Assembly (NCBI GenBank): GCA_964651115.1
Contig: CAZYXJ010000001.1
Span: forward strand, 380,243 to 444,242
Direction of reading: 5' to 3'
Source of the DNA: an uncultured Candidatus Saccharibacteria bacterium
Lineage (GTDB): Bacteria; Patescibacteriota; Minisyncoccia; Phycocordibacterales; JACOZG01
DNA length: 64,000 bases
Part shown: piece after piece, positions 14,381-45,727 of the stretch
How positions within the stretch are numbered: the stretch's first letter is position 1
Layout of the letters: the number at the start of each line of letters is the position of its first letter
Program-made: the position numbers and the translations under genes
The notes under the pieces: model-generated
Databases searched by the model: none
Told to the model about the DNA's origin: nothing
The model's input: the letters and a program-made list of their open reading frames with translations, nothing else

Positions 14381-14414
14381 AGTTTTGGATCTATTTAACT
14401 TAGGAAGGACAAGA

Positions 14415-14681: not shown

Positions 14682-14745
14682 GCTCCGCCCCGCGGAGCTT
14701 TTTTCTTTTTCAAAAATTGACACCAAGAAGAATCCGCATATTATT
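14682..14745 (+). repeat. terminator (GCTCCGC-ccc-GCGGAGC + T-run) + promoter module copy 4
   Basis: Perfect 7-bp hairpin, then TTTTTTCTTTTTCAAAAATTGACACC, with a -10-like ATTATT 17 nt downstream. Confidence 0.55.
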
Positions 14746-14769: not shown

Positions 14770-15297
14770 ATGTTACAGCCAACAGAAATTCTAGCAGAAA
14801 TTAAAAGCCGGCCACCGCTTCAAAGAAAAAGCGCGGAGGAAAGCTATCGAGGAATAAAAGTTAATTGGAAACTTACGTTTAAGGACGCTCACCGAAGAAA
14901 TACCAACTTATTAATTCACGCCTGGCCTGAAAATAGTTTGTACCCAGATGTAGATTTCGAGGTAAATAAAGACGCCTACCCACATTTTAACATTTTACAT
15001 GACGGGGAGCTATTTTGGGTAAAGGGAAAAATAAGTGAATTAACTATGTATAAAATTCAATTAATAGACTGCGAGGTCAAATTTAGCGACGAATCGGAAT
15101 CCCAAAATGTTGAACAACCCTCTACAGGGAGCACTTTCGTAAATTCACAGATTCATTATGGAAATGGAGACAACGTTATTGGTAAAAAAACCATGGCCGT
15201 CGAAAGAAGTTTCTGGTCTAGTCTAGTAGGTCAGGTAATTGTAGGACTATCAGTTACTGCTATTGTCGCTATTTTTACTTATATTTTAAATAAGTGA
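14770..15297 (+). CDS. hypothetical C-terminally membrane-anchored protein, AT-rich (foreign-looking)
   Basis: C-terminal TM LVGQVIVGLSVTAIVAIFTYIL; by eye GC is roughly 38-40% versus about 50-55% in neighbours; no Shine-Dalgarno. Confidence 0.5.
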   Translation: MLQPTEILAEIKSRPPLQRKSAEESYRGIKVNWKLTFKDAHRRNTNLLIHAWPENSLYPDVDFEVNKDAYPHFNILHDGELFWVKGKISELTMYKIQLIDCEVKFSDESESQNVEQPSTGSTFVNSQIHYGNGDNVIGKKTMAVERSFWSSLVGQVIVGLSVTAIVAIFTYILNK

Positions 15298-16085
15298 TTA
15301 CTCGTCCTAAAAAATCACTCGGGCAAAATTGGCTCCGAAGCGAAGCGGCGAGAGCGGCGATTATTGAGGCGGCCGAGCTTGGCACTACTTCGCCCTCTGG
15401 GCTTCGAAGTACGACGACTAACGTCGTCGAGATTGGCCCCGGCGAAGGTTTTTTAACCGAAGCTCTACTGGCCACCGGCGCCACCGTCACCGCCATTGAG
15501 AAGGACGACCGCCTCATTGGCCTACTTTCCACCAAATTTTCCGCTCCACTCACGACCGGTCAGCTCAAGTTAATCCATGGCGACGCCCTCGATCAACCGC
15601 CACCAAGCGCGCCTTACAAAATCGTGGCTAATATACCTTATTATTTGACCGGGGAGATCTTGCGCCACTTCTTAACCCACTCCCATCAACCAACTCAGAT
15701 GGTCTTGATGCTCCAAAAAGAGGTGGCCGACCGGATTATTGCCCGGGATGGCAAAGAATCCTTACTCTCAATCTCCGTCAAAGCTTATGGCGAGCCAATT
15801 TATGTAAAAACTGTCCCGCGGGGCGCCTTTTCGCCCGTGCCCAACGTCGATTCGGCCATTCTTAACATTAAAAATATCTCTCGGGCTCGTCTAAAGAGGG
15901 AAGAGGAGTCTCGTTTTTGGGAAATTCTCCATTTAGGCTTCGCTCATAAACGTAAGTTAGTCTTAAAAAATCTGGGTTGTTCGACAGCCATCGCCGAGCT
16001 CTGTACAATTAGCCCCAAAGCCCGAGCAGAAAATCTAACCCTTAAACAATGGCTATGCCTAACGAAGCAACCGAACCTCCAGTAA
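15294..16085 (+). CDS. rsmA: 16S rRNA (adenine1518-N6/adenine1519-N6)-dimethyltransferase
   Basis: KsgA motifs SLGQNWL, VVEIGPGEGFLT, IVANIPYYLT. Confidence 0.85.
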   Translation: MITRPKKSLGQNWLRSEAARAAIIEAAELGTTSPSGLRSTTTNVVEIGPGEGFLTEALLATGATVTAIEKDDRLIGLLSTKFSAPLTTGQLKLIHGDALDQPPPSAPYKIVANIPYYLTGEILRHFLTHSHQPTQMVLMLQKEVADRIIARDGKESLLSISVKAYGEPIYVKTVPRGAFSPVPNVDSAILNIKNISRARLKREEESRFWEILHLGFAHKRKLVLKNLGCSTAIAELCTISPKARAENLTLKQWLCLTKQPNLQ

Positions 16086-16108
16086 AATTACCCGGCTCAG
16101 GCTGGTTT

Positions 16109-16639: not shown

Positions 16640-16662
16640 AAAACAAGTTATAATAAACTTGG

Positions 16663-17520
16663 GTGAAGAGAAAAATATTTATTTTCGCGCTTGTCGCGAT
16701 TCTTGTTGTAGGTGGAGGAGTGATTTTCTTGTGGGTACTAGGAAACAAAACTCTCCAAGACCAAGAGCTCGCGGCTCAAGGTTTTAAAAAAATTGATCAG
16801 CCAGACTCAGACGGGGATAGTCTGGCTGATTGGGAAGAAGAATTGTGGGAAACCGATCCACAAAAACCCGACACCGATGGCGACGGCGCCAGCGACGGAG
16901 AAGAAATTAAAGCCCGTCGCGACCCGCGACGGGCTGGACCAGGTGACGAGATACAGACCGCAAAAGATAATTTAAATATTTTAATTTATCAGGCGCTTAA
17001 ATCTAAGGATAATGGATTAATTATCCCCGAGACACCACTAGCATCCCCATCAGTAAAACAAGTAAAAGTTACAACAACAAACGAACGAACTGCCGAGGAA
17101 GCAATTCAATACGCGAGGAAGTTCGTGGCCGCCACTGCCCCCTACTTGCAATACTCCGGACCCAACCCCGAAAAATCGCTGCTAGAAAAAATCGACAACG
17201 AGAAATCCTCAGCCACAGAAAACCTGACCAATTACGGTTACATGCTCGAGGGGGTGACCCAATCACTTGAAGACATAAGCACCCCAGAAGAAGTTAGTTC
17301 TCATCACATTAAACTAATAACTCAAATAAAAAAAATGGCTGTTTTAGTTCAAAATATGCTTGAAGCCGAAAAACAACCAATTATCGCCCTGCAAGCTGGC
17401 CAACAATTTCCGATTGAGCGAGCATACGTTAGCCAAGCAATTTTAGATATAAACCAATATCTGATTAGATATGGCGTTTCGTTAACACCGGAAATGCTTA
17501 GTGGGATTCTTCGATTTTAA
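16663..17520 (+). CDS. membrane-anchored protein with thrombospondin-type-3-like Ca-binding Asp repeats
   Basis: N-terminal TM; DSDGDSLADWEEE and DTDGDGASDGEE (DxDxDG) motifs; first gene of the T4SS-like cluster. Confidence 0.45.
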   Translation: MKRKIFIFALVAILVVGGGVIFLWVLGNKTLQDQELAAQGFKKIDQPDSDGDSLADWEEELWETDPQKPDTDGDGASDGEEIKARRDPRRAGPGDEIQTAKDNLNILIYQALKSKDNGLIIPETPLASPSVKQVKVTTTNERTAEEAIQYARKFVAATAPYLQYSGPNPEKSLLEKIDNEKSSATENLTNYGYMLEGVTQSLEDISTPEEVSSHHIKLITQIKKMAVLVQNMLEAEKQPIIALQAGQQFPIERAYVSQAILDINQYLIRYGVSLTPEMLSGILRF

Positions 17521-17523
17521 AAC

Positions 17524-20500
17524 ATGAAACTCGGATCAAATATAAAAAAAGCTAGCTCCGGAATGATATTTATTTGGATAATTTCCTGTTTGATTTTTGT
17601 GCCCATAATGGCCGCGGCTCAAAATAAGACCAGTGTTGACCAGCGACGTCAGCAAGATAGCCAAATTTGCCAAGCGGAAGCAGAGAATAACAGAAACTTT
17701 AACTCACTCCCTGGGGGACGTAAGCTGGCTGATTCTTTGGCCCTAGGACTAGCCGAAGGTTTTAATACGGTTTTGAAAAATACCCTAGAGACCAAGGTTC
17801 CCGCCATCATGTCGAGGCAGATCAGCCAAAAATTACCTGCTCTCATAAACGGAAACCTCCAGCGCCAACTTGCCCCCGCCATCAACAATCAAATTAGAAC
17901 AATGAGAAGCCGGGGGCTTTCTGACATTCAAATAAAACAAGAGTTGCAATCAATCATCGCTCAGGCAATTGAGGCCATCGTATCTGAAACAATCAACGCC
18001 CACGCGGGAACACTAACTCAGCAAGGGATCCAAACTGCTTTGCCACAAGAGCTAGCACGCCAAATGGGTGATCAAGTGCCAAGTATTTTGGAAGCTAGTG
18101 GATTTAATCGCCAGACTCAAGAGATGGTCGATCAACTAGTAAATCCAATTAACCAGCTTTTGCCCCTCGTTATCCAATTAATGACTCAGGTTCAAAATGT
18201 TGGCGACGTTCAACAAATTATTCAACAAATTTTCGCCCAAGCGGTACAAAAAATTATTACAGATGCAATAAGTAGCAAGAACCCAGAAATCGGCCCCCTA
18301 CTTGGATCAGAAATCACTATCTCCGACGCCGATCGTAAATTAATCGCGGAAAAAATTTCAACCGGAGTCGCCAGCACCACTCAGCAAACCCTTTATAAAT
18401 CAAGGAATTTAGTTAACCTGTCCAATGAAGTATCCCGACGCTATGCCTCACAACTGACCCCCTTATTAATCTCTCAACTCACCCCCCAAATATCTCAAGC
18501 CTTTAGAAATGGCCCCACCGGATCCTCATTAAACAACTCAATTAACAACATTCTAACGGGACCAGGGTTCGACTTGTCGCGCGGCATGTCTGGGGATTTT
18601 CTAATGCCGATAATGAACTCAATCGAAAAACCCCTGGCCGACGTTGTTCAAACCCAAGTAGCGTCGTGGACAAACAGCCTCCAAAGTCTTGAGCAAACAA
18701 ATCCTGCTTTGTTCGAAAGTTTAACTTTCGAACAATCCGATCTTTTGGGTGAATCGGCAACACTAGATGCGGAATTTGCTGATCGAGGAATGGGCGGTAG
18801 TTATGGTGGCGTAGAAAATGGCAACCAAGCGGCGGCCGAGGCTACAGTAACCGACCCGGAATTTGCTGATCGAGGAGTAGGTAATGTGGCCGCGGTAAGC
18901 GACGAAGCTGCTCAGGCCGTTAAAGGCAACGGATCAGAAATAACTTCAAACGCCCTAAGCGGAATGGGTTCAAAAATAAGTGATGCTTTTAAGGGTAGTC
19001 TCGCTAACGGTTTGGCGGGGGGTCTAGCTGGTCTGGTGGATAATGTGCCAGTGGTTGGTGGGCTACTCTCTGGTGTTGTTCGCCAAGTCACCCTACAAGC
19101 CATGCAACAAGTATTGGGGGTCGGTGTGGGTGCTGGAGTAGGCGGAGGAGCCACTGGTGGCGGTGGCGGTGGAATCCAGGGCGAAGCTAAAACCGGTTTA
19201 AAACTTGGCACGACTGTAGGCATACTACCCGTTAGTAGTCATCAATTTGCTGGCATGAGCCTGCTTCTCGACGCCATCTTTAACTTCTTGCACTTAGGAC
19301 TTACGGCCTCCAATGTAAACACCGGCGGTATTTTGGGTAACACTTCAACCAGCAATCAAAACGAAAAACAACAAATAACCATCGGTCAAGAAACTCAAGC
19401 TCTAGTAACCCAAATGTGCACTCTAGAAAAGCAGCTCAAAGGATCTCTTTACAACATGGAGGACGTTTTAACTAAACACAACCCAAACGCCAACAAATCA
19501 TCGCTCTTAAAACTCGTTGGAATGCTCAAAGGAGGGACAACCTACTTCTCCCAGTATTACGATGATGGTAGCAAAGGAGGAGTGGCCGCGGGCGACGGGA
19601 CCACTACGCGCAGTGGTCAATCGGGAGTGGCCCAGTTAGATAAAAACATCAAACAGGCCGGGCAAGATGAGAGCAACCTAGTCTTAACCACTGCCCAAAC
19701 CAGCCAAAATCCCCTGACCCAGGAGGCGATAGAACTATACCGCAGCAGTCGCGCGGATGAAAACGTCTTTGCTAGTTGGATCGCGCCCGAAGATTGTTCC
19801 AAGCTAAATAACCCAGGGTCACTTTCTTCTCAAGAAGCGTCTGACCTGGCGGTCGAATGTTCTAAACCAGCCAATAACAAGTTCGGACTGTTTACTCAAG
19901 TGAGACAGGGCGCCCTATCGGCGGAGGCGCGAGGCCAAGAAGATGCCCAAACCAAGTTTGTCGCCTATAGCGGAGTCAACGAAAAGAGATACTGCTCCGG
20001 AGGCTGGACCACCGACCCACTTGAAGCCGATCTGAGCGATTTAACACTACCTGGCGAAAACGGTGACATCCTTGGACAAACGCCAATTGGCGCACCACGG
20101 CAATATTGTAAAGAATGGACAACTCTAACCCCCGGATCAATCAACTATCTGTACATGTTTGAATTAATCGCTTCGATAATAAGAAAAATCGGCTCGGCTG
20201 ATTCCGTGGGAGAAGATGTGGCCAATAACTATGCGGTAGTACCAGAACGAATAGTGCAAAACCTGTCCACCAAACCAGAGGAGCAATTGTTTGACCCAAA
20301 TGATGATCCCTGCCCGGGAACAGATCCCTGCCCGGGAACTGGTTGGAATAAAAAACAGGTTTCTGAAGGATCAGCCCTGGAAGAGGCCTTCTCTCAAGGA
20401 CTCGATGAAGGTCTAGCAAACACCGTAGATAATCTTTCTAATGTTTTTGACACTATCAGCTACGACGCAATTAATTCTCCCACTAGTGGCACTGTTTTCC

Positions 20501-20880
20501 CCGCCAACCCCCTTGACTTCTCTCTACCCGCCATCGACTTTAACCAACTATTTCAAAATCAGTTGGCGGTGCAGCCGGCTTTGGCCGCCCCCGGCATCAG
20601 CATTCAACAAGCCACTACCGACAGCACCCCCGGCATTAAACAATCGAGAGTCTCGTGGAAGACCACCGGCGCCGTAACTTGTTTTGCCTCCACGGATTGG
20701 CTAAGCGGCACTTGGCCCGGCGACATTAGCACCACCACCGCTGGCAGTCTACTGGAGACGGTGGGGGAAATAACCCTCAACTACCCAGCCACCACCACAA
20801 CAGACCTGACTTACGGCTTAAACTGCTATAACTCCCAAGGCGTGAGCAGTCAGACGGAAGTTAAAGTAACCAATGAATAA
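17524..20880 (+). CDS. large (1118 aa) secreted/surface low-complexity protein of the T4SS-like cluster
   Basis: N-terminal TM; Q-, S- and G-rich regions (GGGATGGGGGG); internal tandem repeats (EFADRG x2, DPCPGT x2); no enzymatic motif recognised. Confidence 0.5.
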   Translation: MKLGSNIKKASSGMIFIWIISCLIFVPIMAAAQNKTSVDQRRQQDSQICQAEAENNRNFNSLPGGRKLADSLALGLAEGFNTVLKNTLETKVPAIMSRQISQKLPALINGNLQRQLAPAINNQIRTMRSRGLSDIQIKQELQSIIAQAIEAIVSETINAHAGTLTQQGIQTALPQELARQMGDQVPSILEASGFNRQTQEMVDQLVNPINQLLPLVIQLMTQVQNVGDVQQIIQQIFAQAVQKIITDAISSKNPEIGPLLGSEITISDADRKLIAEKISTGVASTTQQTLYKSRNLVNLSNEVSRRYASQLTPLLISQLTPQISQAFRNGPTGSSLNNSINNILTGPGFDLSRGMSGDFLMPIMNSIEKPLADVVQTQVASWTNSLQSLEQTNPALFESLTFEQSDLLGESATLDAEFADRGMGGSYGGVENGNQAAAEATVTDPEFADRGVGNVAAVSDEAAQAVKGNGSEITSNALSGMGSKISDAFKGSLANGLAGGLAGLVDNVPVVGGLLSGVVRQVTLQAMQQVLGVGVGAGVGGGATGGGGGGIQGEAKTGLKLGTTVGILPVSSHQFAGMSLLLDAIFNFLHLGLTASNVNTGGILGNTSTSNQNEKQQITIGQETQALVTQMCTLEKQLKGSLYNMEDVLTKHNPNANKSSLLKLVGMLKGGTTYFSQYYDDGSKGGVAAGDGTTTRSGQSGVAQLDKNIKQAGQDESNLVLTTAQTSQNPLTQEAIELYRSSRADENVFASWIAPEDCSKLNNPGSLSSQEASDLAVECSKPANNKFGLFTQVRQGALSAEARGQEDAQTKFVAYSGVNEKRYCSGGWTTDPLEADLSDLTLPGENGDILGQTPIGAPRQYCKEWTTLTPGSINYLYMFELIASIIRKIGSADSVGEDVANNYAVVPERIVQNLSTKPEEQLFDPNDDPCPGTDPCPGTGWNKKQVSEGSALEEAFSQGLDEGLANTVDNLSNVFDTISYDAINSPTSGTVFPANPLDFSLPAIDFNQLFQNQLAVQPALAAPGISIQQATTDSTPGIKQSRVSWKTTGAVTCFASTDWLSGTWPGDISTTTAGSLLETVGEITLNYPATTTTDLTYGLNCYNSQGVSSQTEVKVTNE

Positions 20881-23383
20881 CTGGCTTAAAAACCTATTGC
20901 TTCTTTCCCTCATCCTGCTCAGTACTGGGTGGGGAAGTAAAGCATGGGCAATCAGCGATAGCTATGACAACATAGGCAATCCGACCACGACCCTCGCTGA
21001 AGCAAAAAATGAAAAACCCACTGCCGAGGGTTACTCACCCAAGGCCTGGGCACTAGCAAATCAGCTAGAGAGCGTGGATAATCAAATCAAAACGAACCCT
21101 CCACCAGCCAATCTAGCCGAGCTCTCCTCACTGAAAGAAAATCTGCTTCTGGAATATAGCTGCTACAAAAGTGGCGTCTGCCACGATGGCGCTCCGTGGA
21201 TCCCAATGTCTATTTACGGCACAGATGCAGATGCCTACAATTTCGCTCGTCTGCAAGCCATACAAAGGCATTGGTCCGGAAATTCTGGAATAAACCAATC
21301 CAATACCAAAGCATATGAAGAGGCTCGCCAAGCGATGTCTCGACGCATGGCCGATCTCCAAACCGAGCTGGCCAAGGACCCCGAGAGAAAAGCGCTCGGC
21401 GATGAAGCTTCTAAACAATTCTACAACCAAGACATCAGAAAAGACATCGAGCAGAGGCGCAATTGTGGCCTGTGGAATTGGGGTCCATGTTTTGTTGACG
21501 CCGTAAACTACCTCACTCAAACGATTATCAAACCAGTAGGAGAAAAGCTAGTAAAAGGGGCTAATTATCTGTTTAACGCTTCTTTCCAGTTTTCCGTCCG
21601 AGACTTCTCAACCTACGCCTCCAAACAATCGATTAAAGACGGTTGGACAATTGTACGAGACCTCACTAATATCGGCTTTATTTTCGCTCTACTATATGCC
21701 GCCACCTCGATTATCCTCCAACTGAAAAGCGTTGACGGCAAACGAATGATCGGAATGATCGTCGTCGGAGCACTTTTGGTAAACTTTAGTGCCTTCTTTG
21801 TGGGCATAGTCATTAACGCCAGCAACGTCTTGGCTAATCAAATCTATCTCGCCGCGGCGGGGGATGAACTACTTGATGGAACACCAGATTTGGCCGGTAA
21901 AATAATTAAATACCGAAACACTGTCGGGAACGGCTCTCAAACCACGCTAGCCCCCGATCAAACTTCGACTGACGCTCTATCGGCTTCGATTATGAATGGT
22001 TTAGGCTCCGCAACCCTCGCCATCGTCACCGCCGTCGTGCTATTAGCCGGAGCCCTAATGATGCTTACTCGTTTTTTGAAGCTTCTCCTGGTTATCGTTT
22101 TCTCTCCTATCCTTTTTCTAGGACTAGGTCTTCCACTAGCTCGTTCCTGGGGCGGCGAATGGGTGAAAAAAACTCTGTTCTCAGAAGCCTTCTTCGCCCC
22201 CGCCTACCTACTAATGCTGTTAGTGGCTTCTAAATTTATTGCCGTGGCCGAATTTAATCTTCCGGGCAAACCATCTAGCTTTGTTAACGCCGTTTTCTAT
22301 AATTTTATTACCGTTGGCCTAATGGTTGGGTCACTGCTGATCGCGCAGTTCGTGGGCCATTCTTCCGGTGGTTACGTTGCCAATAAACTTAAGCAGTATG
22401 GGCGCAGTTTAGGCCTGGGCCTAGCTGGAGCTAGCACCTTTGGCGCGGCTGGACGCTTAGGCCGATCAATTATCGGACGGGCGGCCAAAAACGAGCTCGA
22501 AGATCCAAGAACCCTAAATCGGTCTAATCAGCGCGGGGTTAGCGGCTGGCTAGCAAAACAAACTCTTAAGGTGGCCGACTTCGCTTCCAAATCTAGTTTT
22601 GACGCTCGCGGCTTAGATTCAGTTAAAAAATTAGGCCTTGGTGAGGGCCAAAAAGGTGGCTACGTGGGTGACATCAAACGCAAGGCGGAGGCCGCCGGAA
22701 AAATCGCTAAGCTTATAGGCGCTAAAGACAGCGAGGGGAGCGAAGTTAGCGCCAGAGAACAAGCTCGCATCGACGATAAAAAACTCGAAGCACGAACTCG
22801 CGCTGACGAGATCCAGGCGCAAGCCAAATCGGCCCAGGATGCGGCAACCACTAGCGCTCAAGCAGAAATTAACGCCAAAAAAGCTGAACAAGCACGAGAA
22901 ATCGATCGCATCGGTCAAGAAGCTAACGCGCAACTACAAAGTAACGGAGCCAAACCAGAAGAAGTTAAGGCGGAGCGAGAAAGAAAGGAGGAAGAGGTTC
23001 GCCAGCGCATTGAAGCGCAAATTAAGGAAGTCGAACGAAAGCGCGATGAAAGCATTAGCAAAGCTAGTAGCCAAATTAAAGAGGCAGAAAAATTACGCAC
23101 CGCGGCCGAAAAGCTCCAGCCCCGAAAACGTGTCCAAGAACTGGCCGATCAATACGATGACGCCGGCGGAAAAGAGCCTCAATCTTGGTACCGCTTTAAT
23201 CGTTGGCGCGGCAAGGTGACCCGCACGCGCAAAGCTCAAGCCGCCGCCATTCGAGAAAGCGCTAAATCCAAAAAGGAGAAGTACCAAGAGAACTTAGCCA
23301 AGCTTCTAGAAAAAGCAGAGAAAGAAGAAGGGGAGACGAATGCCGAAAAGACGCCCAATGAACCACCTAAACCAACTGCCTAA
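20873..23383 (+). CDS. VirB6/TrbL-like polytopic membrane protein (TcpH-like) with long charged coiled-coil C-terminal tail
   Basis: Signal peptide, then at least 6 hydrophobic helices across residues ~250-500, then a K/E/A-rich tail. Size and architecture match Gram-positive VirB6 homologues (~830 aa). Confidence 0.5.
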   Translation: MNNWLKNLLLLSLILLSTGWGSKAWAISDSYDNIGNPTTTLAEAKNEKPTAEGYSPKAWALANQLESVDNQIKTNPPPANLAELSSLKENLLLEYSCYKSGVCHDGAPWIPMSIYGTDADAYNFARLQAIQRHWSGNSGINQSNTKAYEEARQAMSRRMADLQTELAKDPERKALGDEASKQFYNQDIRKDIEQRRNCGLWNWGPCFVDAVNYLTQTIIKPVGEKLVKGANYLFNASFQFSVRDFSTYASKQSIKDGWTIVRDLTNIGFIFALLYAATSIILQLKSVDGKRMIGMIVVGALLVNFSAFFVGIVINASNVLANQIYLAAAGDELLDGTPDLAGKIIKYRNTVGNGSQTTLAPDQTSTDALSASIMNGLGSATLAIVTAVVLLAGALMMLTRFLKLLLVIVFSPILFLGLGLPLARSWGGEWVKKTLFSEAFFAPAYLLMLLVASKFIAVAEFNLPGKPSSFVNAVFYNFITVGLMVGSLLIAQFVGHSSGGYVANKLKQYGRSLGLGLAGASTFGAAGRLGRSIIGRAAKNELEDPRTLNRSNQRGVSGWLAKQTLKVADFASKSSFDARGLDSVKKLGLGEGQKGGYVGDIKRKAEAAGKIAKLIGAKDSEGSEVSAREQARIDDKKLEARTRADEIQAQAKSAQDAATTSAQAEINAKKAEQAREIDRIGQEANAQLQSNGAKPEEVKAERERKEEEVRQRIEAQIKEVERKRDESISKASSQIKEAEKLRTAAEKLQPRKRVQELADQYDDAGGKEPQSWYRFNRWRGKVTRTRKAQAAAIRESAKSKKEKYQENLAKLLEKAEKEEGETNAEKTPNEPPKPTA

Positions 23384-23386
23384 TTT

Positions 23387-24166
23387 ATGACAACGCAACC
23401 CTTAACTGATCGCCTAAAAGAACTCCCAGCCGACTGGCAAGCTGACCTCCAGCGGCTCAATTTACCCGAGGTTGTCAAAAAGCTAGCTGCTGATTACAAG
23501 TTATCGCGTGAGCAAGAAGAACAACTAGAAGCCGAAACCGTTCTGGTGGCCATCGGTTTGGAGTTACGAACCGACCTAACCGCTAATCTAACCGCGGCTC
23601 TACACAGTGATTCGGCCGCGATCATCTCAATTAAAGATCGTTTAGAACGAGATGTTTTTAACCCCTTAGCCAAACACCTCGACCAAGCGGAAAAAGAAAT
23701 CAAGGCCGCGGAAGCGGAGGAGCGGGAAAAATACAAACACTTGCCCCTCGAACTCCAAAAAGTAATTCTCGACGCCCGAACCGAAGAGATCTTAGCCGCC
23801 CTTAGCGACAAGTACCAACTCCACATTGACCAAGCTGGTGCCCTGTACGACGTTACCGATCAGGTTTTAATGGGTAAAATTAAGTCCCGGGACTTTGTTG
23901 CCGAACTCGTTCGGACCTCCTCGATGAGTACCGATCTCGCTAGCAAAATAGCCGCGGATCTTAATCAGCAATTATTCCAGCCAGTCCAAAACACTCTCCG
24001 AACACTGGAAAGTCAGCCGCCAACCGTCTTCGAAGCCAAGTTAAAAGGGCTCTGGAGCGGCAATCAAAATCAAAGTTCGAACGAAATTTTGATCAAACCC
24101 CAACCCGCCACTACCGCCACCACACCCACCAAAGTTGCCGATCCCTACTTAGAACCCTTAGAATAA
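23387..24166 (+). CDS. hypothetical acidic soluble protein (T4SS-like cluster)
   Basis: No TM and no recognisable motifs; tightly packed between the VirB6-like and VirB3-like genes. Confidence 0.4.
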   Translation: MTTQPLTDRLKELPADWQADLQRLNLPEVVKKLAADYKLSREQEEQLEAETVLVAIGLELRTDLTANLTAALHSDSAAIISIKDRLERDVFNPLAKHLDQAEKEIKAAEAEEREKYKHLPLELQKVILDARTEEILAALSDKYQLHIDQAGALYDVTDQVLMGKIKSRDFVAELVRTSSMSTDLASKIAADLNQQLFQPVQNTLRTLESQPPTVFEAKLKGLWSGNQNQSSNEILIKPQPATTATTPTKVADPYLEPLE

Positions 24167-24170
24167 AGAC

Positions 24171-24572
24171 ATGAACTTCCAAGTACCCCAATTTATCGAG
24201 GTCGAAGACAAAATTTTCGGCCCCTTTACCTTTAAACAATTCGTCTACTTGGCTGGTTCGGCTGGTGCCGCTTTTCTGATTTGGGTTTATATCCCGGTTC
24301 GCTTTGTTGCCTTAATTTTCGTCATTCCGGTTTTGATCTTAGGGCTCTTGCTAACCTTTTACCGAGTTAATAATCGCCCATTTGTTTCTATTTTGGAGGC
24401 CGCGGCCCGCTACGCTCTAACTCACAAACTTTATATCTGGCAAAGATCTAGTGCTCCCACTAAAACTAACGTCACCGCTCCGACGACCTCGGGTTTAAAA
24501 ATTCCCAAACTCTCTGACAGCAAATTAAAAGACCTCTCCTGGAGTCTAGATGTGAAAGAAAAAATCCAGTAA
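24171..24572 (+). CDS. PrgI/VirB3-like small two-TM protein
   Basis: EDKIFGPFTFKQFVYLAGSAGAAFLIW + second TM; immediately upstream of VirB4 as in MPF_FA systems. Confidence 0.5.
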   Translation: MNFQVPQFIEVEDKIFGPFTFKQFVYLAGSAGAAFLIWVYIPVRFVALIFVIPVLILGLLLTFYRVNNRPFVSILEAAARYALTHKLYIWQRSSAPTKTNVTAPTTSGLKIPKLSDSKLKDLSWSLDVKEKIQ

Positions 24573-24592
24573 CAATGGTACACTAATAGGCA

Positions 24593-25240
24593 ATGGCCGC
24601 TGACACTAAAGCCAAAGCTTCGCAAGAATTTATTCCGATTCAAGAAATTCGGGATGGGGTAGTCATCCTTAAAGATGGGGGAATGCGTTTAGGTTTGATC
24701 GTCTCCTCGATTAACTTTGCGCTCAAATCGGCCGACGAACAAACCGCGATTCTGCTCCAGTTCCAAAACTTTCTTAACTCTCTGGATTTTGACATCCAGC
24801 TGTTTGTAGAATCCCGCAAACTAGACATCATGCCTTACCTCACCACCCTAGAGGAAAGATTGGTGGCTCAAACCAACGATTTGATGAAGGTCCAAACTCG
24901 AGAGTACATCGAATTTATCAAAAAATTTACTGAGACCACCGACATTATGTCGAAGAGTTTTTTCGTGATCGTCCCTTTCAATCCTTCAATCATCAGCAAT
25001 GCCAAATCACAAAGTTTAATTGGCCGATTCTGGCCCGGCGGCCAACCATCACCTAGTGCCGAGCAAGACCAGCTTAATAATTTTGAAGAAAATCGAACTC
25101 AATTAGAACAGCGAGCCGCCGTCGTCGCCGGCGGCCTGGGGGCCGCCGGCCTCCGGGTCTCCCAACTCGGCACCGAGGAATTAGTCGAGTTATACTTTAA
25201 GATGTTTAATCCGGGGGAACGCGAAATCCCTTCGATCTAA
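24593..25240 (+). CDS. VirB4/TrbE-family conjugation ATPase, N-terminal fragment (split gene)
   Basis: IPIQEIRDGVVILKDGGMRLGLIVSSINFALKSADEQTAILLQFQNFLNSL matches the VirB4 N-terminus of Gram-positive systems. Stops at 25238-25240, 4 nt before the next ORF in a different frame. Confidence 0.55.
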   Translation: MAADTKAKASQEFIPIQEIRDGVVILKDGGMRLGLIVSSINFALKSADEQTAILLQFQNFLNSLDFDIQLFVESRKLDIMPYLTTLEERLVAQTNDLMKVQTREYIEFIKKFTETTDIMSKSFFVIVPFNPSIISNAKSQSLIGRFWPGGQPSPSAEQDQLNNFEENRTQLEQRAAVVAGGLGAAGLRVSQLGTEELVELYFKMFNPGEREIPSI

Positions 25241-25244
25241 ATTT

Positions 25245-27080
25245 ATGTCTTTATTTAATTTCGGCAAAAAAACTGAGGCCGCCCCCACACTGACTCCGAT
25301 TCTGCCTCAAGACATTTATCAATTGGGAGTTTTGCAGCTACGCGACGTCATCGCGCCTTCAGCCCTCAAGGTCACGCCCAAGATGCTCCACCTGGGCGAT
25401 CGATTGGCCCGCACTTTTTACGTTATCTCTTACCCGCGATTCCTGTCTGGCGATTGGTTTGCCCCCATCATCAATCTCGACAAAATTTTTGACATTTCGA
25501 TTCATATCCATCCAATCGATAGCGCCTTGGCTCTGCGTCAACTAGAAAAAAAAGTGGCCGAAGTGCAAAGCCAAATCAGTATGAAGGAGGATCGGGGACT
25601 GGTGCGTGACCCGGTGCTCGACACCGCCTACCAAGACATCGAGGACTTACGCGACAGTCTCCAGCAAGCCCGCGAAAAAATCTTCGACGTCGGTATCTAC
25701 ATCACGATTTACGGTGACGGCGAAGAAGATCTCGACCGAGTCGAAACCGAGGTCAAAGGAATTCTCGACGCCAAACTAGTCTATTTAAAGCCCGCGCTCT
25801 TCCAACAAGCGGAAGGCTTTCGCAGCGTTTTACCCACCGCCACCGACGAATTAAACGTCAATTACAAACTCAACTCTTCACCGCTGTCGAGCGTCTTTCC
25901 CTTTGTCTCTTTTGATCTCACCTCCAACCGCGGCATTCTTTATGGCATCAACCGTCACAATTCCAGTCTCGTGCTCTTTGACCGCTTCTCACTCGAAAAC
26001 TACAACTCAGTGATCTTTGCCAAATCTGGTTCCGGTAAATCTTACGCCACCAAACTAGAAATCTTGCGTAGTTTAATGTTTGATACCGACGTTATCGTCA
26101 TTGACCCCGAGCGCGAATACGAATTCCTTGCCGAAGCCGTGGGGGGACGGTACTTTAACATCTCTCTATCTTCCGAACATCACATTAACCCCTTTGATCT
26201 CCCTTTCCCTCGCGAAGATGAGTCACCGGCCGACGTTCTCCGTTCCCACATCATCAATCTCGTCGGACTCTTTCGCCTAATGCTTGGCGGCCTCACCCCC
26301 GAGGAAGATGCCATTATCGACCGCGCCATTACCGAAACTTACGCCCTCAAAGACATCACGGCCGACATTGACTACACCACCAAGCCGGCGCCCCTGCTCT
26401 CCGACTTGGAATTAGTTCTGGCGGGCATGGAGGGCGGGGAGGGCTTGGCGCAACGCTTGCTCAAATACACCCGCGGCACCTGGTCGGGCTTTATCAACAA
26501 ACCGACCAACGTCGACATCAACAAAAAATTTATTGTTTTCTCCGTCCGCGACATGGAGGATGAGTTAAAGCCCGTGGCGATGTACATCGTGATGCACAAT
26601 ATCTGGAACTCCATCCGACGCAATCTTAAAAAGCGCCTGCTGGTAATCGATGAGGCCTGGTGGATGATGAAGTCCAAAGACACGGCCTCCTTCCTCTTCT
26701 CGCTCGTTAAGCGCGGACGCAAATACTATCTTGGCGTCGCGACAATTACCCAGGATGTCGGCGACTTCTTGCGCTCAGAGTACGGCACGCCAATTATTAC
26801 CAACTCTTCGATCCAACTCTTACTCAAGCAATCACCGGCCTCAATTGACCTCGTCCAGCAGACCTTCCAATTAACTGACGAAGAAAAATATTTACTCCTC
26901 GAATCAGCGGTCGGGGAGGGGATCTTTTTCGCCGGGCTAAAGCACGTGGCGATCAAAATCATTTCGTCTTACACCGAAAATCAAATTATCACTTCTGATC
27001 CGTCAGAGATTCTGGCCATCCGCCAAGCCAAAAAAGATCTAGCGGCCCTAAACAACAATGAAAGCGTCCCCGAAAATTAA
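25245..27080 (+). CDS. VirB4/TrbE-family conjugation ATPase, C-terminal portion (Walker A/B)
   Basis: Walker A IFAKSGSGKSYAT; Walker B LLVIDEAWWMM; VATITQDVGDF. Combined length with the upstream ORF is 826 aa, typical of intact VirB4. Confidence 0.75.
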   Translation: MSLFNFGKKTEAAPTLTPILPQDIYQLGVLQLRDVIAPSALKVTPKMLHLGDRLARTFYVISYPRFLSGDWFAPIINLDKIFDISIHIHPIDSALALRQLEKKVAEVQSQISMKEDRGLVRDPVLDTAYQDIEDLRDSLQQAREKIFDVGIYITIYGDGEEDLDRVETEVKGILDAKLVYLKPALFQQAEGFRSVLPTATDELNVNYKLNSSPLSSVFPFVSFDLTSNRGILYGINRHNSSLVLFDRFSLENYNSVIFAKSGSGKSYATKLEILRSLMFDTDVIVIDPEREYEFLAEAVGGRYFNISLSSEHHINPFDLPFPREDESPADVLRSHIINLVGLFRLMLGGLTPEEDAIIDRAITETYALKDITADIDYTTKPAPLLSDLELVLAGMEGGEGLAQRLLKYTRGTWSGFINKPTNVDINKKFIVFSVRDMEDELKPVAMYIVMHNIWNSIRRNLKKRLLVIDEAWWMMKSKDTASFLFSLVKRGRKYYLGVATITQDVGDFLRSEYGTPIITNSSIQLLLKQSPASIDLVQQTFQLTDEEKYLLLESAVGEGIFFAGLKHVAIKIISSYTENQIITSDPSEILAIRQAKKDLAALNNNESVPEN

Positions 27081-27378
27081 TGGTCTAAGCGCCATTGGTT
27101 TAACCGTCGTAGCCTTAGTCTTCGACATCTTAAGTCTCGTTCCTCTCTTAAACATCATTACTGGCTTAGTCGGCTGGTTCATCTTTTCTTTGTGGTTCTT
27201 CTTGCTTGGCTTTGGTTTACTGGAGGGGCGTCGGCTAGTCACTATTATGTCTTCAATGATTATCGAGGTTGTTCCTCTCTTAAGTTGGCTACCCACAATG
27301 ACCATCGGTGTTATCGCGCTCATTCTAATGGTAAACTTAAAGGGTGTCTTACCTCTCCCCAAAGTTAATTCTCGTTAG
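27058..27378 (+). CDS. small polytopic membrane protein (3 TM), T4SS-like cluster
   Basis: Three hydrophobic helices; overlaps the VirB4 stop. Confidence 0.4.
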   Translation: MKASPKINGLSAIGLTVVALVFDILSLVPLLNIITGLVGWFIFSLWFFLLGFGLLEGRRLVTIMSSMIIEVVPLLSWLPTMTIGVIALILMVNLKGVLPLPKVNSR

Positions 27379-28087
27379 TCTCGCATTACTTACCTCGAGC
27401 CTAACCGCTAATGCTCAAACCGCCCCCTTGGTTGATCTAATTTGGGAGGCCGATAGCTACTTACCGGCTTTTTACCCTGGACACAGCCGGCCAGCGCCTG
27501 GCAGCACCGTCCGCCTGGCCGCTTTAGCCCAGTTTACTGATCCGGCCACTGGCCGAAGTTTGGGTCCCGACAGTCTCACTTACACTTGGTCCAAAAATGG
27601 CCAAACCATGGGCGGCGTCTCGGGAGTGGGTAAAGATTCCATTATCTTTAGCGCTACCGAACAAGCTATTTTTCGAGTCACGGTGAGCCACTCGGCAAGC
27701 GGCCTAAGCGCGACTAATCAAGTCTCGATTAGTCCTCAACCCGGGCTCATTAAGCTTTATTACGAGGAACCACTCTTGGGCACGGCCCACCATCAACCGG
27801 TCCCGAGCACCTTTGAGATGCCCGAAGGTGAAATTAATTTAAGAGCCGAACCATTTTATTTTTCCCAGAACGCTTATCTCAACAAAAAAATCCAGTTCCA
27901 ATGGACCATCAACGGCGAAAATATTGTTTCTGACCCCGCCGATCCAGGTTTGATTACGATCACCAAGCCAGACACCGGGGTGGGGGAGAATGCTTTTACC
28001 GTCACGGCCAAAAATTTAGCTAACGTCTTGCAAACCGCGACTAATAAATTCACAATTAAGTTCAACAGCAGTAATATTTCTTTTTAA
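27344..28087 (+). CDS. secreted protein with signal peptide (T4SS-like cluster)
   Basis: Signal peptide LILVSLALLTSSLTANAQ; no recognisable domain. Confidence 0.45.
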   Translation: MSYLSPKLILVSLALLTSSLTANAQTAPLVDLIWEADSYLPAFYPGHSRPAPGSTVRLAALAQFTDPATGRSLGPDSLTYTWSKNGQTMGGVSGVGKDSIIFSATEQAIFRVTVSHSASGLSATNQVSISPQPGLIKLYYEEPLLGTAHHQPVPSTFEMPEGEINLRAEPFYFSQNAYLNKKIQFQWTINGENIVSDPADPGLITITKPDTGVGENAFTVTAKNLANVLQTATNKFTIKFNSSNISF

Positions 28088-28089
28088 CT

Positions 28090-28452
28090 ATGGATCCTCT
28101 TTACGCCGCTCAAAATACCAAACAAGTCGTGCTCATTCCTAATGCCGTTATCCCGGGCACCGAAAATCCTGAAGACTTCACTGATTTTATAGGCGGCCTC
28201 CTGCCGCAAATAATTACTGTTTTAGTCCTGCTCACGGTCATCTCCCTGGCGTGGTGGGGAATTGGCTACTTCTTAAAAAACATCCCGGGCTTCAAGTCCT
28301 ACGCCAAAACCAGAATTTGGGACATTATTTTAGGCCTAGTCCTAATTTTTGGGGCCTATCTCATTCTCCAAGTAATCAACCCCAACATCAATAACGGCAA
28401 CCTCTTTAACAACTCTTTAAATCAGATCAAGAATTCGAGTCCAGCCAAGTAA
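28090..28452 (+). CDS. small hydrophobic protein, possible VirB2/TrbC-like pilin
   Basis: 120 aa with two hydrophobic segments (ITVLVLLTVISLAWWGIGYF; IILGLVLIFGAYLILQVI), a pilin-like architecture; speculative. Confidence 0.35.
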   Translation: MDPLYAAQNTKQVVLIPNAVIPGTENPEDFTDFIGGLLPQIITVLVLLTVISLAWWGIGYFLKNIPGFKSYAKTRIWDIILGLVLIFGAYLILQVINPNINNGNLFNNSLNQIKNSSPAK

Positions 28453-28455
28453 ACC

Positions 28456-29679
28456 ATGCGGCGCCTTCTTATTATTATCATCTTAGTAGCCACCGGCTTA
28501 GCTGGCGGAGGTTGGTGGCTGTGGCAAAGGGCCCAAACTAACGGTGTTCTCTACGAGCCGCCAGCGGCCACCATTAACTTCCCCCAAGGAGAAGAGCGTC
28601 CAGGAATCAGCCGTTCAACCACCAGCGCCACCCTAATCCTGCCGGATCTTTCGAGTGGACCGCTTCAAACCGCCTCTAATCGACCCGTGGTGGGAGTAAT
28701 GAGCTTTGGTTCAGCGTCCTCCTCTCTAGAAATCTACGCCGAAGCAGTGAGCGGCCACCTTTATCTCGCCGGCGGCGGCCGCCTCTCCAACACCACGGTG
28801 GCTGGCCTCCGTCGGATCGTCGGGGCCAGCCAAGGCAAAAATATTAAGCTCCTCCTCACCACTCAAACGGGAGCCATGCCAGAAACCTTACTCGCCACTT
28901 TTATTCCACCCAAAGAAAATACTAATAGCTTCGTTGATAATCTCGAATCGGAAACCACCCTCCAAACTCAAGCGCTCTCTCGACTAATTAGAGAGCCCGT
29001 CATTAGCCCGACGGGCGAGGCCTGGGCCTATCTCACCCCCAAAGGCCCCAAGACTGAAGTCGTGATTAATCAATTTAGCAGCAGCAGTCCAATTTCGCTT
29101 TATTCCTCGCCGCTCGAAGAATGGTCTCTCGCTTGGCCCGCAACCTCAACCATCACCCTACAAACAAAGCCGGCCAGCTTTATTGCGGGCACCTTAATCG
29201 GTCTAAATCCGAAAACTAAAGTAGCCACGCGGCTAATCGGGGGAGTCTCCGGCCTCTCCGCCCAGATGAGCCCCGATGGCCAAGCCATCGTCTACAGCGG
29301 CGCTGCTACCAACGGAATTTTTCTGGGACTTTACTACCCAGCCACCGACCTATTAACTCGCGCGCCTTTTGTAACGCTAGCCGATAAGTGTACCTGGTCT
29401 AAAAATAGCCAAACTCTTTATTGCGCAGTGCCCAAAACCATCCCCCCAGGGAATTATCCCGAAGATTGGTATCAAAGTAACGTTAGTTTTAGCGATATTT
29501 TCTGGAAATTTAATCGTCAGACCAACCGCGCCGAAATTATTTACAATCCCGAATTGGCTAATCCTAGCCGGTCACTCGACGCGACCAATCTAGTCGTCAG
29601 CATTGACGAAAGCAAACTCTACTTTAAAAATAAAGCTGACCAACTTCTTTGGAGTCTTAATCTCAAGACAGGATTTTAG
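28456..29679 (+). CDS. N-terminally anchored secreted protein, putative beta-propeller (TolB-like repeats)
   Basis: N-terminal TM; repeated SP(D/T)G...Y motifs (SPTGEAWAYL, SPDGQAIVYS). Confidence 0.4.
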   Translation: MRRLLIIIILVATGLAGGGWWLWQRAQTNGVLYEPPAATINFPQGEERPGISRSTTSATLILPDLSSGPLQTASNRPVVGVMSFGSASSSLEIYAEAVSGHLYLAGGGRLSNTTVAGLRRIVGASQGKNIKLLLTTQTGAMPETLLATFIPPKENTNSFVDNLESETTLQTQALSRLIREPVISPTGEAWAYLTPKGPKTEVVINQFSSSSPISLYSSPLEEWSLAWPATSTITLQTKPASFIAGTLIGLNPKTKVATRLIGGVSGLSAQMSPDGQAIVYSGAATNGIFLGLYYPATDLLTRAPFVTLADKCTWSKNSQTLYCAVPKTIPPGNYPEDWYQSNVSFSDIFWKFNRQTNRAEIIYNPELANPSRSLDATNLVVSIDESKLYFKNKADQLLWSLNLKTGF

Positions 29680-30385
29680 CTCGACGCCGGACCAATAACT
29701 CGTGGCCGATGGCGAAACAATTACTCGTCACCCAATAAAGCACCACCGCGGCCGGAAATCCTAGCGCGACAAAGGTAATCATCACGGGGAAGATAAATCG
29801 CATCTGCATATTCATACTCCGCGCCAAGTCGGCTTTGAGCGACGGCTGGTCTTGATTAGAACTCTGAGGCAGGGGAGGAACCGCCAAACTGATTTGAAAA
29901 TACTGGGAGACGCCGGCCACCAAGGCCAACGGGATACTGCGAGCGGTTAGATCAAGTAGCCCTAAAAAATGCGCGTTGACCCCGAGCGGAGGAGTAATAA
30001 ACGCGTACAACCACTGGCTATTAATCGTCAGGCTGTCACGGAAAACGTAAAGTAAAGCAAACATAATGGGTAATTGAATAAGCAAAGTCACAAAACCAGA
30101 AAACGGGTTGACTCCATGAGCTCGATAAAGAGCCATAATCGCCTGGGCTTGAGCGGCGCTATCACTTTGATGTTTAGCTTTGAGCGCCGCAATCTCCGCC
30201 TCTAACTCCTTAAGCTTCTTTTGCGTGGTTAGAGCACGATGTTGGAGAGGAAGTAACGCGAATTTAACTAAAATAGTCAATAAAATAATGGCAATACCTA
30301 AATCGTGCCCAGGTACAATGGCCGACAGCCAAATCAAAAGATTATAAAGCGGTTCGAAGAAAATCGTTCGGAAAAGAGCCCGCAT
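29663..30385 (-). CDS. yidC: membrane protein insertase YidC/Oxa1 (short form)
   Basis: LLTILVKFALLPLQHRALTTQKKLKELE, MALYRAHGVNPFSGFVTLLIQLPIMFALLYVF; upstream of rnpA/rpmH in classic origin-region synteny. Confidence 0.85.
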   Translation of the reverse strand: MRALFRTIFFEPLYNLLIWLSAIVPGHDLGIAIILLTILVKFALLPLQHRALTTQKKLKELEAEIAALKAKHQSDSAAQAQAIMALYRAHGVNPFSGFVTLLIQLPIMFALLYVFRDSLTINSQWLYAFITPPLGVNAHFLGLLDLTARSIPLALVAGVSQYFQISLAVPPLPQSSNQDQPSLKADLARSMNMQMRFIFPVMITFVALGFPAAVVLYWVTSNCFAIGHELLVRRRAKILS

Positions 30386-30391
30386 AGAGAT

Positions 30392-30724
30392 TTATAGTAT
30401 ACCCGCTTCGCGTAACAAAGACAGTATTGACGCCTTAAGGGCCGGATAGGAATAGTTGAGCAGGGGAGCCCCCAAGAAAAAAGCCCCTCCCTGACCGCGC
30501 TTTAAACGGGAAAACTCCTGGGTCACGACCGCCCGAACTCGTCGGCGAAGACGATTGCGATCAACCGCCCGACGAAGGGATTTGCGACCAACAATAAAGG
30601 CAAATTTAGGGCCGAGCTGAACATTTTCGAGAGGGTGGAGAGTTAACGATAGGGGAAAATGGCCATATTTATGGCCATTTTTAATGACTGCGGTCAGGAA
30701 ATCGCGGTCGAGAGCGTTCTTCAC
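30392..30724 (-). CDS. rnpA: ribonuclease P protein component
   Basis: Basic RnpA motif KSLRRAVDRNRLRRRVRAVV; position between rpmH and yidC. Confidence 0.75.
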   Translation of the reverse strand: MKNALDRDFLTAVIKNGHKYGHFPLSLTLHPLENVQLGPKFAFIVGRKSLRRAVDRNRLRRRVRAVVTQEFSRLKRGQGGAFFLGAPLLNYSYPALKASILSLLREAGIL

Positions 30725-30727
30725 AAT

Positions 30728-30862
30728 TTAAACAGACAACCGAGCGCGACCTTTACGTCGACGGCTTTGCAAAACCTTGCGTCCACCGGGCGTCCGACTC
30801 CGAACGAGAAAGCCGTGGGTTCGGGCGCGTTTGCGCTTTTTTGGTTGGTAGGTAACAGACAT
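30728..30862 (-). CDS. rpmH: 50S ribosomal protein L34
   Basis: My own reverse-strand translation gives [44 protein letters not shown] (44 aa), a canonical L34. Absent from the ORF track (under 60 aa). Confidence 0.85.
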
Positions 30863-45704: not shown

Positions 45705-45727
45705 CTTCGTGCTACAATAACGGCATT

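Follow-up and report, generated by a model that had tools for sequence, protein, structure and literature searches.

Patescibacteria carry type IV secretion systems (T4SSs) that a 2025 review counts as established newcomers to the T4SS superfamily (PMC12857230) and whose role a 2024 perspective called 'completely unknown' (PMC11665869). In Southlakia epibionticum ML1, a member of the Saccharibacteria, transposon sequencing (Tn-seq) found the T4SS genes SEML1_0006-0019 to be essential for epibiotic growth; the system resembles Gram-positive conjugative systems, includes essential pilins, and is without coupling and relaxase proteins (Wang et al., 2023, Cell; PMC10633639). A survey of 3,035 genomes placed most Patescibacteria VirB4s in one clade nested in MPF_FATA and found TrsD, PrgI/VirB3, VirB6 and VirB2-like genes near virB4, with relaxases nearly absent and, in Paceibacteria and others, the cluster lying near dnaA, dnaN, rnpA, ksgA and rpmH (Quinonero-Coronel et al., 2025, Microb Genom; PMC12102498). 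A non-conjugative, co-opted reading of these systems has already been published (PMC10633639; PMC12102498; PMC12857230). Here we compare with them a gene cluster at positions 16663-29679 of a 64-kb window, our term for the whole stretch of DNA analysed (64,000 nucleotides, positions 380,243 to 444,242 of contig CAZYXJ010000001.1, assembly GCA_964651115.1), from an uncultured Candidatus Saccharibacteria bacterium, a reduced-genome, ultra-small, host-dependent Patescibacterium. Gene content and order mark the cluster as a chromosomal T4SS of the Patescibacteria in the Parcubacteria/Paceibacteria arrangement, beside the replication origin (oriC), with a core derived from monoderm MPF_FATA conjugation machines.

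The cluster consists of 11 co-directional genes on the plus strand, tightly packed and with all open reading frames (ORFs) intact; spacers between neighbours do not exceed 23 nt, and genes that overlap share 8-35 nt. A first-pass annotation made from the sequence alone had described the block as co-directional and packed, as we find it, but had counted 13 genes, a number reached only by adding the upstream ksgA and DUF192 genes. It had also proposed a monoderm-type T4SS, for which a PrgI protein, a VirB4 ATPase, a VirB6-like protein and a pilin were all recovered: VirB4 and PrgI score above their profile cutoffs, and VirB6 is recognized via orthologues only. The other cluster genes discussed below are named g plus the length of the product in amino acids (g285, g1118, g259, g106, g247 and g407).

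The predicted motor is a 611-residue VirB4 ATPase of the MPF_FATA/CD1110 type without the N-terminal domain (25245..27080, plus strand). The proposed Walker A (GSGKS) and Walker B (LLVIDEAWW) motifs can both be read directly in its sequence. It scores 372 bits against the NCBIfam model 'VirB4-like conjugal transfer ATPase, CD1110 family' (cutoff 325), spanning profile positions 185-733 of 752, and lower against the models for VirB4 of mycoplasma integrated conjugative elements (ICEs; 267 bits), F-type TraC (183) and VirB4/CagE (117). Pfam matches are to P-loop_TraG (4e-26), AAA_10 and DUF87, and matches in the PDB include the VirB4 C-domain structure 4ag5 (4.8e-42) and TrwK (2e-8). The initial label of MPF_FA, the one substantive mistake of the first-pass annotation, has to be replaced, the affinity being to MPF_FATA (CD1110/PrgJ/Trs type): against NCBIfam ATPase_TcpF the protein reaches 23.6 bits, where the cutoff is 1100.

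The N-terminal domain is encoded separately, in the preceding ORF. Its product, a 215-residue TrsD-like protein (24593..25240, plus strand), matches the NCBIfam models VirB4_plasma at positions 99-233 (2.3e-8), CD1110 at positions 2-126 (1.9e-5), and TrsD (6.8e-4). When the 797-residue VirB4 of Clostridium botulinum pCDC3875 is aligned by tblastn, its residues 25-197 fall on this ORF and its residues 213-757 on the next. Because a single VirB4 aligns across two adjacent ORFs, and because the CD1110 profile is likewise divided between them, the alignments directly show VirB4 to be split into a TrsD-like domain and a 611-residue motor, as VirB4 of pGO1 is split into TrsD and TrsE (PMC12102498). 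Upstream of the TrsD-like gene lies the expected PrgI/VirB3-like protein (24171..24572, plus strand; 133 residues), with two transmembrane (TM) helices and a match to Pfam PrgI (8.7e-10, 39.4 bits, cutoff 27). This protein had been placed directly upstream of VirB4, which is not its position, since the TrsD-like ORF sits between the two.

The channel subunit is harder to recognize. We accept the 836-residue protein encoded at 20873..23383 (plus strand) as a probable extended VirB6/TrbL-like polytopic protein, on evidence that is weak but specific and convergent. In keeping with its first description as a polytopic protein with a charged tail, it has a signal peptide, an external domain of ~230 residues, at least five hydrophobic TM helices, and a cytoplasmic, Lys/Glu-rich coiled-coil tail of ~270 residues, the net charge of the whole protein being +20. 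Pfam TrbL/VirB6 is matched by 7 of its 41 orthologues (best 6e-5), and the top PDB match of a profile of the family's TM region, among 177,635 sequences, is TrwI, the VirB6 of R388 (E=0.009). Its gene also stands upstream of PrgI, the position of the CD1112 VirB6 in pCDC3875.

The 120-residue product of 28090..28452 (plus strand), noted at first pass as pilin-like, is a predicted two-helix hairpin that we assign to the VirB2/TrbC-type T4SS pilins. Its own matches are weak (TrbC 1.7e-3, T4SS_pilin 0.019, Mbov_0395 pilin-like 0.007) and those of its family strong, with PF18895 (T4SS_pilin) matched by 25 of the 25 aligned members, counting the window protein and 24 orthologues (best 1e-10), and TrbC by 8 of them. 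Stop codons immediately precede the ORF, whose product is polar at its N-terminus (MDPLYAAQNTKQ...). A hydrophobic signal peptide is present in most orthologues, and many have variable C-terminal extensions of 100-450 residues; the closest relatives, too, have ORFs of ~120-144 residues at this position.

A scan of a genome collection with the window VirB4 returned at least 566 relatives, the best 80 at 73-87% identity. These best 80 carry Patescibacteria-type titles or plain 'bacterium' titles of metagenome-assembled genomes, none being titled as another phylum. The named lineages among them are Kaiser-, Taylor-, Vogel-, Nomura-, Campbell- and Zambryskiibacteria and Paceibacterota/Parcubacteria, and the other titles are the generic 'Saccharibacteria', 'Patescibacteria' and 'bacterium'. 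Judged by similarity, the window VirB4 probably belongs to the monophyletic Patescibacteria clade. The closest proteins outside the phylum are plasmid VirB4s of Bacillota and Actinomycetota, at no more than 36% identity, several of which are annotated as CD1110 family.

The cluster is embedded among housekeeping genes. Its conserved left neighbour is ksgA, encoding an rRNA adenine dimethylase (15294..16085, plus strand; Pfam RrnaAD 1.3e-45) and found upstream of the cluster in 44 related loci; a DUF192 gene (16049-16639, plus strand) lies between ksgA and the cluster. The conserved right neighbours are yidC, rnpA and rpmH, on the minus strand and convergent with the cluster (29663..30862): yidC (29663-30385; Pfam 60KD_IMP 6e-43) converges with the last cluster gene and is followed by rnpA (30392-30724; Pfam Ribonuclease_P 2e-12) and rpmH (30728-30862; L34 sequence read directly). 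Beyond them are dnaA (31029-32393) and dnaN (32543-33646), both on the plus strand and matched by Pfam. The cumulative GC skew has its minimum at ~31-33 kb of the window, and the skew at third codon positions changes sign between dnaA and dnaN; this switch places oriC there, and the cluster therefore adjoins the replication origin. The plus-strand gene array at 9046-29679, which includes the cluster, is transcribed toward dnaA and oriC and thus head-on to replication. This orientation, virB4(+) ... yidC(-) dnaA(+), is constant in all related loci holding both; the 2025 survey treats origin proximity as a dosage effect and does not mention orientation (PMC12102498).

The arrangement extends to dozens of Parcubacteria/Paceibacteria species-level genomes. 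The order kept in them is ksgA – [~300 aa] – [variable, 300-1240 aa] – VirB6-like – [~200 aa] – prgI – trsD-like – virB4 – [small TM] – Ig-like – pilin – propeller – yidC(-) – dnaA – dnaN, with the span from ksgA to yidC measuring 11.8-17.7 kb in 38 loci. Across the best 80 loci, VirB4 was present in 80, the TrsD-like protein in 79, PrgI in 77, g247 in 75 and g407 in 67. Because the same order from ksgA to dnaN recurs in dozens of genomes, these comparisons show a system that is chromosomally fixed and appears to be vertically inherited.

Conservation is unevenly distributed over the cluster. Median identities are 75.5% for VirB4, 56% for the TrsD-like protein and 50% for PrgI; the housekeeping neighbours have medians of 58% (DnaA), 46% (KsgA), 41% (YidC) and 38% (DnaN), and the envelope and extracellular cluster proteins 27-33%. 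VirB4 was more conserved than DnaA in 58 of 58 loci compared, than YidC in 63 of 63, than DnaN in 55 of 55 and than KsgA in 44 of 44, in a set of 80 loci that was itself chosen by VirB4 similarity and so inflates VirB4 conservation. Since VirB4 stands above every housekeeping neighbour, the predicted motor appears to be under strong purifying selection. The steep gradient from the motor to the surface parts probably points to components that face a host.

We looked for the missing parts of a conjugation machine by running Pfam on every window ORF of at least 300 residues and by six-frame tblastn with three pCDC3875 queries (one type IV coupling protein, CD1115; one MOBP relaxase; one SLT hydrolase), the tblastn, of limited sensitivity with one query per family, covering the 64-kb window and the flanks of ±10 kb around the 80 related loci. 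The Pfam scan contained no relaxase family, and the single MOBP query, with the sensitivity just stated, matched nothing in the window or in the 80 flanks. No VirD4/TcpA coupling ATPase domain was found in the window ORFs, and the best E-value of the CD1115 query was 0.92. A VirB1-like hydrolase (SLT/CHAP) was not found among the 11 cluster proteins by domain scan, nor with the SLT query. There is no space for an origin of transfer (oriT) within the cluster, because its genes overlap or are at most 23 nt apart. The original statement that the window has no visible relaxase, coupling protein or oriT is thus borne out by these searches. Around the cluster we found only short, imperfect direct repeats at chance level, none att-like; no tRNA gene adjoins it (the nearest are at 12-211 and 49608, tRNAs being all that an Rfam scan of the window returned); and its GC content shows no step. 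The sole integrase in the window is a XerC/D-like tyrosine recombinase (2026-2931), 14 kb away and beyond housekeeping genes. We take the cluster as not conjugative because no relaxase, coupling protein, SLT hydrolase, space for oriT or flanking repeats were seen, and the non-conjugative role suggested at first pass gains support from the same observations and from the fixed gene order.

A peptidase of the M23 family with two LysM domains is encoded at 7835-8899 on the minus strand, 8 kb upstream of the cluster and on the opposite strand. VirB1-like proteins with M23/LysM domains were reported in the 2025 survey (PMC12102498), and this peptidase could fill the place of the absent wall hydrolase; a general role in division is just as plausible.

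The remaining cluster genes encode a set of accessory and envelope proteins. The first, g285 (16663..17520, plus strand), is predicted to be bitopic: a TM helix at the N-terminus anchors it in the membrane, and it carries calcium-binding repeats of the thrombospondin-type-3 kind (DxDxDG; Pfam TSP3_bac 2.8e-5) and a helical bundle. An ORF of ~300 residues occupies its position in most loci, and a profile of its orthologues matches only the calcium-repeat region of a biofilm-associated surface protein (8e-7). An AlphaFold2 model of g285 (pLDDT 74.7) has an all-helical extracytoplasmic C-terminal domain at pLDDT 80-95, for which a Foldseek search of the PDB gave nothing below E=0.4, the matches being only four-helix-bundle sensor-like folds. 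We considered g285 as the missing VirB8 and rejected it, since the modelled bundle is helical throughout, does not resemble NTF2 and is matched significantly by no structure in the PDB. Among bitopic candidates, this check for a VirB8 fold by modelling covered g285. The public annotation gives g285 263 residues, starting 22 codons downstream of the GTG at 16663, a start that would delete the N-terminal TM helix present in all orthologues. Just 5' of the gene is a -35/-10 match (TGAACA-17-TATAAT, 16626-16654), a consensus match only, from a scan that gave 23 promoter-like matches against 15.9 +/- 3.7 in shuffled sequences (about 2 standard deviations higher) and 35 terminator-like matches against 25.3 +/- 5.7 (an excess of less than 2 standard deviations). 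As the match ends 9 nt before the GTG, the g285 mRNA may be leaderless or nearly so.

The second gene, g1118 (17524..20880, plus strand), encodes a predicted secreted protein of 1118 residues with a signal peptide. Helical repeats rich in Q, I and L fill its N-terminal half, a conserved hydrophobic segment rich in Gly follows at ~490-560, and the C-terminal third contains Cys. It had no match in Pfam or NCBIfam and none in a word-indexed search of 5.8 billion proteins; a full HMMER search of 1.84 billion representatives found only 35 relatives at E<=1e-3, mostly of ~1000 residues. In this family P509, G512, C632, C824, C862, C930 and C936 are invariant and C49 and G513 nearly so, and P509, G512 and G513 fall inside the hydrophobic stretch, which could be a membrane-active segment. 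The family profile found only designed helical repeats in the PDB, and Pfam was uninformative (DUF445 in 6 of 18 members). A large ORF of variable length (roughly 300-1240 residues) holds the g1118 position in most of 38 loci, a few being ambiguous, and by these comparisons g1118 appears to be very fast-evolving and barely alignable.

Between the VirB6-like gene and prgI lies g259 (23387..24166, plus strand), whose product is an acidic, predicted cytoplasmic protein consisting of an internally duplicated five-helix domain of ~85 residues and a disordered tail. No fold match was found for it. The tail ends in DPY[L/R]E, a motif shared by the orthologues through which g259 may dock onto a partner, for example VirB4. 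Downstream of virB4, g106 (27058..27378, plus strand) encodes a small membrane protein with ~4 hydrophobic segments and residues A19, D23, E70, P73 and P79 conserved in 11 orthologues; Pfam and NCBIfam scans matched it to no family. The next product, g247 (27344..28087, plus strand), has a signal peptide that can be read directly and is a predicted secreted Ig-like beta-sandwich protein: its profile matches phage Hoc Ig domains (1.5e-3), and its orthologues match BiPBP_C (15 of 44), Ig_3 (6 of 44) and the PKD-like families PKD_3 (4 of 44) and PKD_6 (2 of 44). The last gene, g407 (28456..29679, plus strand), would encode an extracytoplasmic TolB/PD40-like beta-propeller held by an N-terminal membrane anchor. 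Its orthologue profile matches TolB propellers (5.6e-5) and designed 'Cake' propellers (2.6e-7), with weak matches to PD40 and DPPIV_N and, in one orthologue, PG_binding_1; C312, C323 and D347 are invariant.

Set beside the system of S. epibionticum, the window cluster shares much of its layout. The parts described there are a VirB6-like protein (SEML1_0013), an NTF2-like protein (0012), PrgI (0010), a ~290-residue protein (0009), VirB4 (0008), a protein of >1100 residues (0007), a lysozyme (0006), an exported Ig/PEGA protein (0005) and six pilins (PMC10633639). Both loci have a VirB6-like protein followed by PrgI, a protein at the TrsD position (the ~290-residue one in S. epibionticum) and VirB4 (612 residues there), together with an exported Ig/PEGA-like protein, a protein of >1100 residues (downstream in S. 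epibionticum) and PF18895 pilins, and both are without a relaxase or coupling protein; the low locus-tag numbers imply that the S. epibionticum genes also lie near dnaA. S. epibionticum has six pilins in tandem, an enzyme of the lysozyme/glucosaminidase type and an NTF2-like protein (VirB8 fold), whereas the window cluster has one pilin, no hydrolase or NTF2-like protein detected in it, and in addition a TSP3 protein and a TolB-like propeller. It is in S. epibionticum alone that essentiality has been demonstrated. From the Paceibacteria arrangement of the 2025 survey the cluster differs in nothing essential: an MPF_FATA-related VirB4 adjoins TrsD-like, PrgI, VirB6 and VirB2-like pilin genes beside dnaA, dnaN, rnpA, rpmH and ksgA, with no relaxase or coupling protein nearby. 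The survey did report an association of VirB1 with virB4 in Paceibacteria (PMC12102498), and no VirB1-like gene is in the window cluster; it left the other neighbours without annotation. The system type, the oriC location and the missing parts were therefore already published in 2023-2025. What is new here are the predicted annotations of an Ig-like protein, a TolB-like protein, a protein with calcium repeats and a helical bundle, a two-domain cytoplasmic protein and a hypervariable protein of ~1000 residues.

More distant comparators are the monoderm MPF_FATA systems (the CTn2/CD1110 type of C. botulinum pCDC3875, pCF10 Prg/Pcf and pGO1 Trs). The cluster has in common with them a VirB4 above the CD1110 cutoff, PrgI and the order VirB6-PrgI-X-VirB4 seen in pCDC3875. 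It differs from MPF_FATA conjugative systems in that no VirD4-type coupling protein, relaxase, SLT/CHAP hydrolase or VirB8-like protein was found in it, in its VirB2-type pilin, which Gram-positive systems lack (PMC12857230), and in its chromosomal position, fixed at oriC and not on a mobile element. Helicobacter pylori ComB (DNA uptake) and Bordetella pertussis Ptl and Brucella VirB (protein export) resemble it in having been co-opted non-conjugatively without a coupling protein or relaxase (PMC12102498; PMC11665869), but these belong to the MPF_T systems of diderms and have an outer-membrane core of VirB7/9/10, for which the window cluster has no homologue, and none is essential for growth.

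Taken together, we consider it highly probable that the cluster is a T4SS with a non-conjugative role in host interaction, a judgement that covers no particular substrate. Most likely, that role takes the form of contact-dependent traffic with the host that the bacterium lives on. In the mechanism we propose, PrgI and the TrsD-like domain would dock a VirB4 hexamer on the VirB6-like channel, ATP hydrolysis by VirB4 would pull pilin from the membrane and assemble it into a short wall-crossing pilus or conduit, the Ig-like, propeller and calcium-binding proteins would form or stabilize the extracellular part, and the variable giant protein g1118 may be a host-specific tip, adhesin or substrate facing the host. 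Protein export comes close to an even chance as the function of such a machine but falls a little short of it; import of host macromolecules is a doubtful candidate, a mainly adhesive function is quite unlikely, and the small remainder goes to some other function or to the remnant of an ICE considered below. A bolder version of import would make the extracellular module that has so far gone unannotated but is conserved (g247, g407, g285 and g1118), together with a VirB2-type pilus, a conduit penetrating the host envelope, with g1118 as host-range determinant or membrane-inserting tip: a feeding tube taking in host macromolecules and not a secretion device. We regard this version as rather unlikely.

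Several points weigh against this interpretation, besides the choice of loci by VirB4 similarity. The VirB6 assignment is weak: the 836-residue protein of the window on its own has no Pfam match, its family profile aligns to the one CD1112 VirB6 sequence tried at a non-significant hhalign E of 0.56, and the family-level E-value against TrwI is only 0.009. The window pilin is without an N-terminal signal peptide, unlike most of its orthologues. With no VirB8-like or VirB1-like component found in the cluster, the crossing of the wall is left without an explanation. The six accessory proteins, from g285 to g407, are tied to the machine only by conserved position and packing. A coupling protein may be encoded elsewhere in the genome, VirD4-like genes lying far from virB4 in most Patescibacteria genomes (PMC12102498). 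The substrate, the direction of transport and even the formation of a pilus are inferred.

Other explanations have to be weighed against a T4SS for traffic with the host. The cluster might be the decaying remainder of an ICE whose relaxase and coupling protein have been lost. Outside the Patescibacteria, the closest VirB4s do sit on conjugative plasmids and ICEs of Bacillota and Actinomycetota, the VirB6-PrgI-X-VirB4 order is that of pCDC3875, and the window holds a tyrosine recombinase, but that enzyme is of the XerC/D kind, with housekeeping genes between it and the cluster. The intact, packed ORFs, the absence of a GC step, flanking repeats or an adjacent tRNA, a VirB4 more conserved than DnaA, and a gene order and a position between ksgA and yidC/dnaA that are constant in dozens of species bring this explanation close to refuted, and we consider it very unlikely. 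The first-pass annotation had named a relaxase plus a coupling protein and element boundaries as the marks of an ordinary ICE, and none of these was seen in the window. It is also improbable, though by no means to the same degree, that the machine imports DNA or nucleotides, as H. pylori ComB does, to feed a cell unable to make nucleotides. As in ComB, no coupling protein or relaxase was found; Patescibacteria are without nucleotide synthesis, and import has been favoured or raised for them (PMC12102498; PMC11665869); and the window is rich in repair and recombination genes (UvrD, RuvB, ComM-like, nucleases). Against this, transformation of S. epibionticum needs comEC, which is dispensable for growth, and the T4SS is essential (PMC12857230), so the essential role of the T4SS cannot run via ComEC. 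Pfam and NCBIfam, moreover, recognized no DNA-binding or nuclease component in the cluster, and the NCBIfam matches to the archaeal DNA importers CedB and CedD are weak and confined to the P-loop region.

A third possibility is an organelle for attachment alone, in which the core builds a VirB2-type pilus that anchors the cell together with the giant protein and nothing is translocated. The pilin gene, whose orthologues often have long variable C-terminal extensions, the hypervariable surface components, and the Ig-like, propeller and calcium-binding extracellular proteins typical of adhesion would all fit. The genome already encodes type IV pili, however, and inhibitor studies implicate those in Saccharibacteria adhesion (PMC12857230), and the large cytoplasmic tail of VirB6 and the conserved cytoplasmic g259 suggest, in our view, the handling of a cytoplasmic substrate; attachment alone is accordingly very improbable. 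The coexistence of type IV pili (pilB, pilMNO) had been claimed at first pass, and PilB and PilM are indeed present, with PilN matched only weakly. The genes, pilB (T2SSE 8e-120), pilM (1e-29) and the weak pilN, lie across the origin from the cluster at 41189-42883 (minus strand) and 56361-58473 (plus strand).

The housekeeping functions that Pfam recognized among window ORFs of at least 300 residues are a CCA-adding enzyme, the XerC/D-like recombinase, a ComM-like Mg-chelatase ATPase, the M23-LysM peptidase, UvrD/PcrA, PBP1, TyrRS, RuvB, PilB, PolA, a Mur ligase and PilM. A dense run of repair and nuclease genes occupies 43299-51424 (PolA, a PD-(D/E)XK nuclease, uracil-DNA glycosylase, an exo/endonuclease-phosphatase and Fpg), with UvrD, RuvB, RuvX and ComM-like genes elsewhere in the window, a noteworthy repair content in so small a genome. 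A 32-nt direct repeat, its two copies 91% identical (14328-14359 and 14693-14724), lies upstream of two small ORFs (14352-14642 and 14770-15297). Each copy has a T-rich terminator tail and a TTGACA box, and the repeat looks like a reused terminator-promoter cassette.

The window presents no new kind of system; what it offers is the Parcubacteria/Paceibacteria arrangement in full and in clean form. Its value lies in the conservation gradient described above and in extending the parts list of that arrangement, which now includes a split VirB4, a single leaderless pilin, predicted Ig-like and TolB-like extracellular proteins and a hypervariable giant secreted protein. Before the T4SS of the Patescibacteria, no T4SS had been shown to be indispensable for growth of its own bearer.

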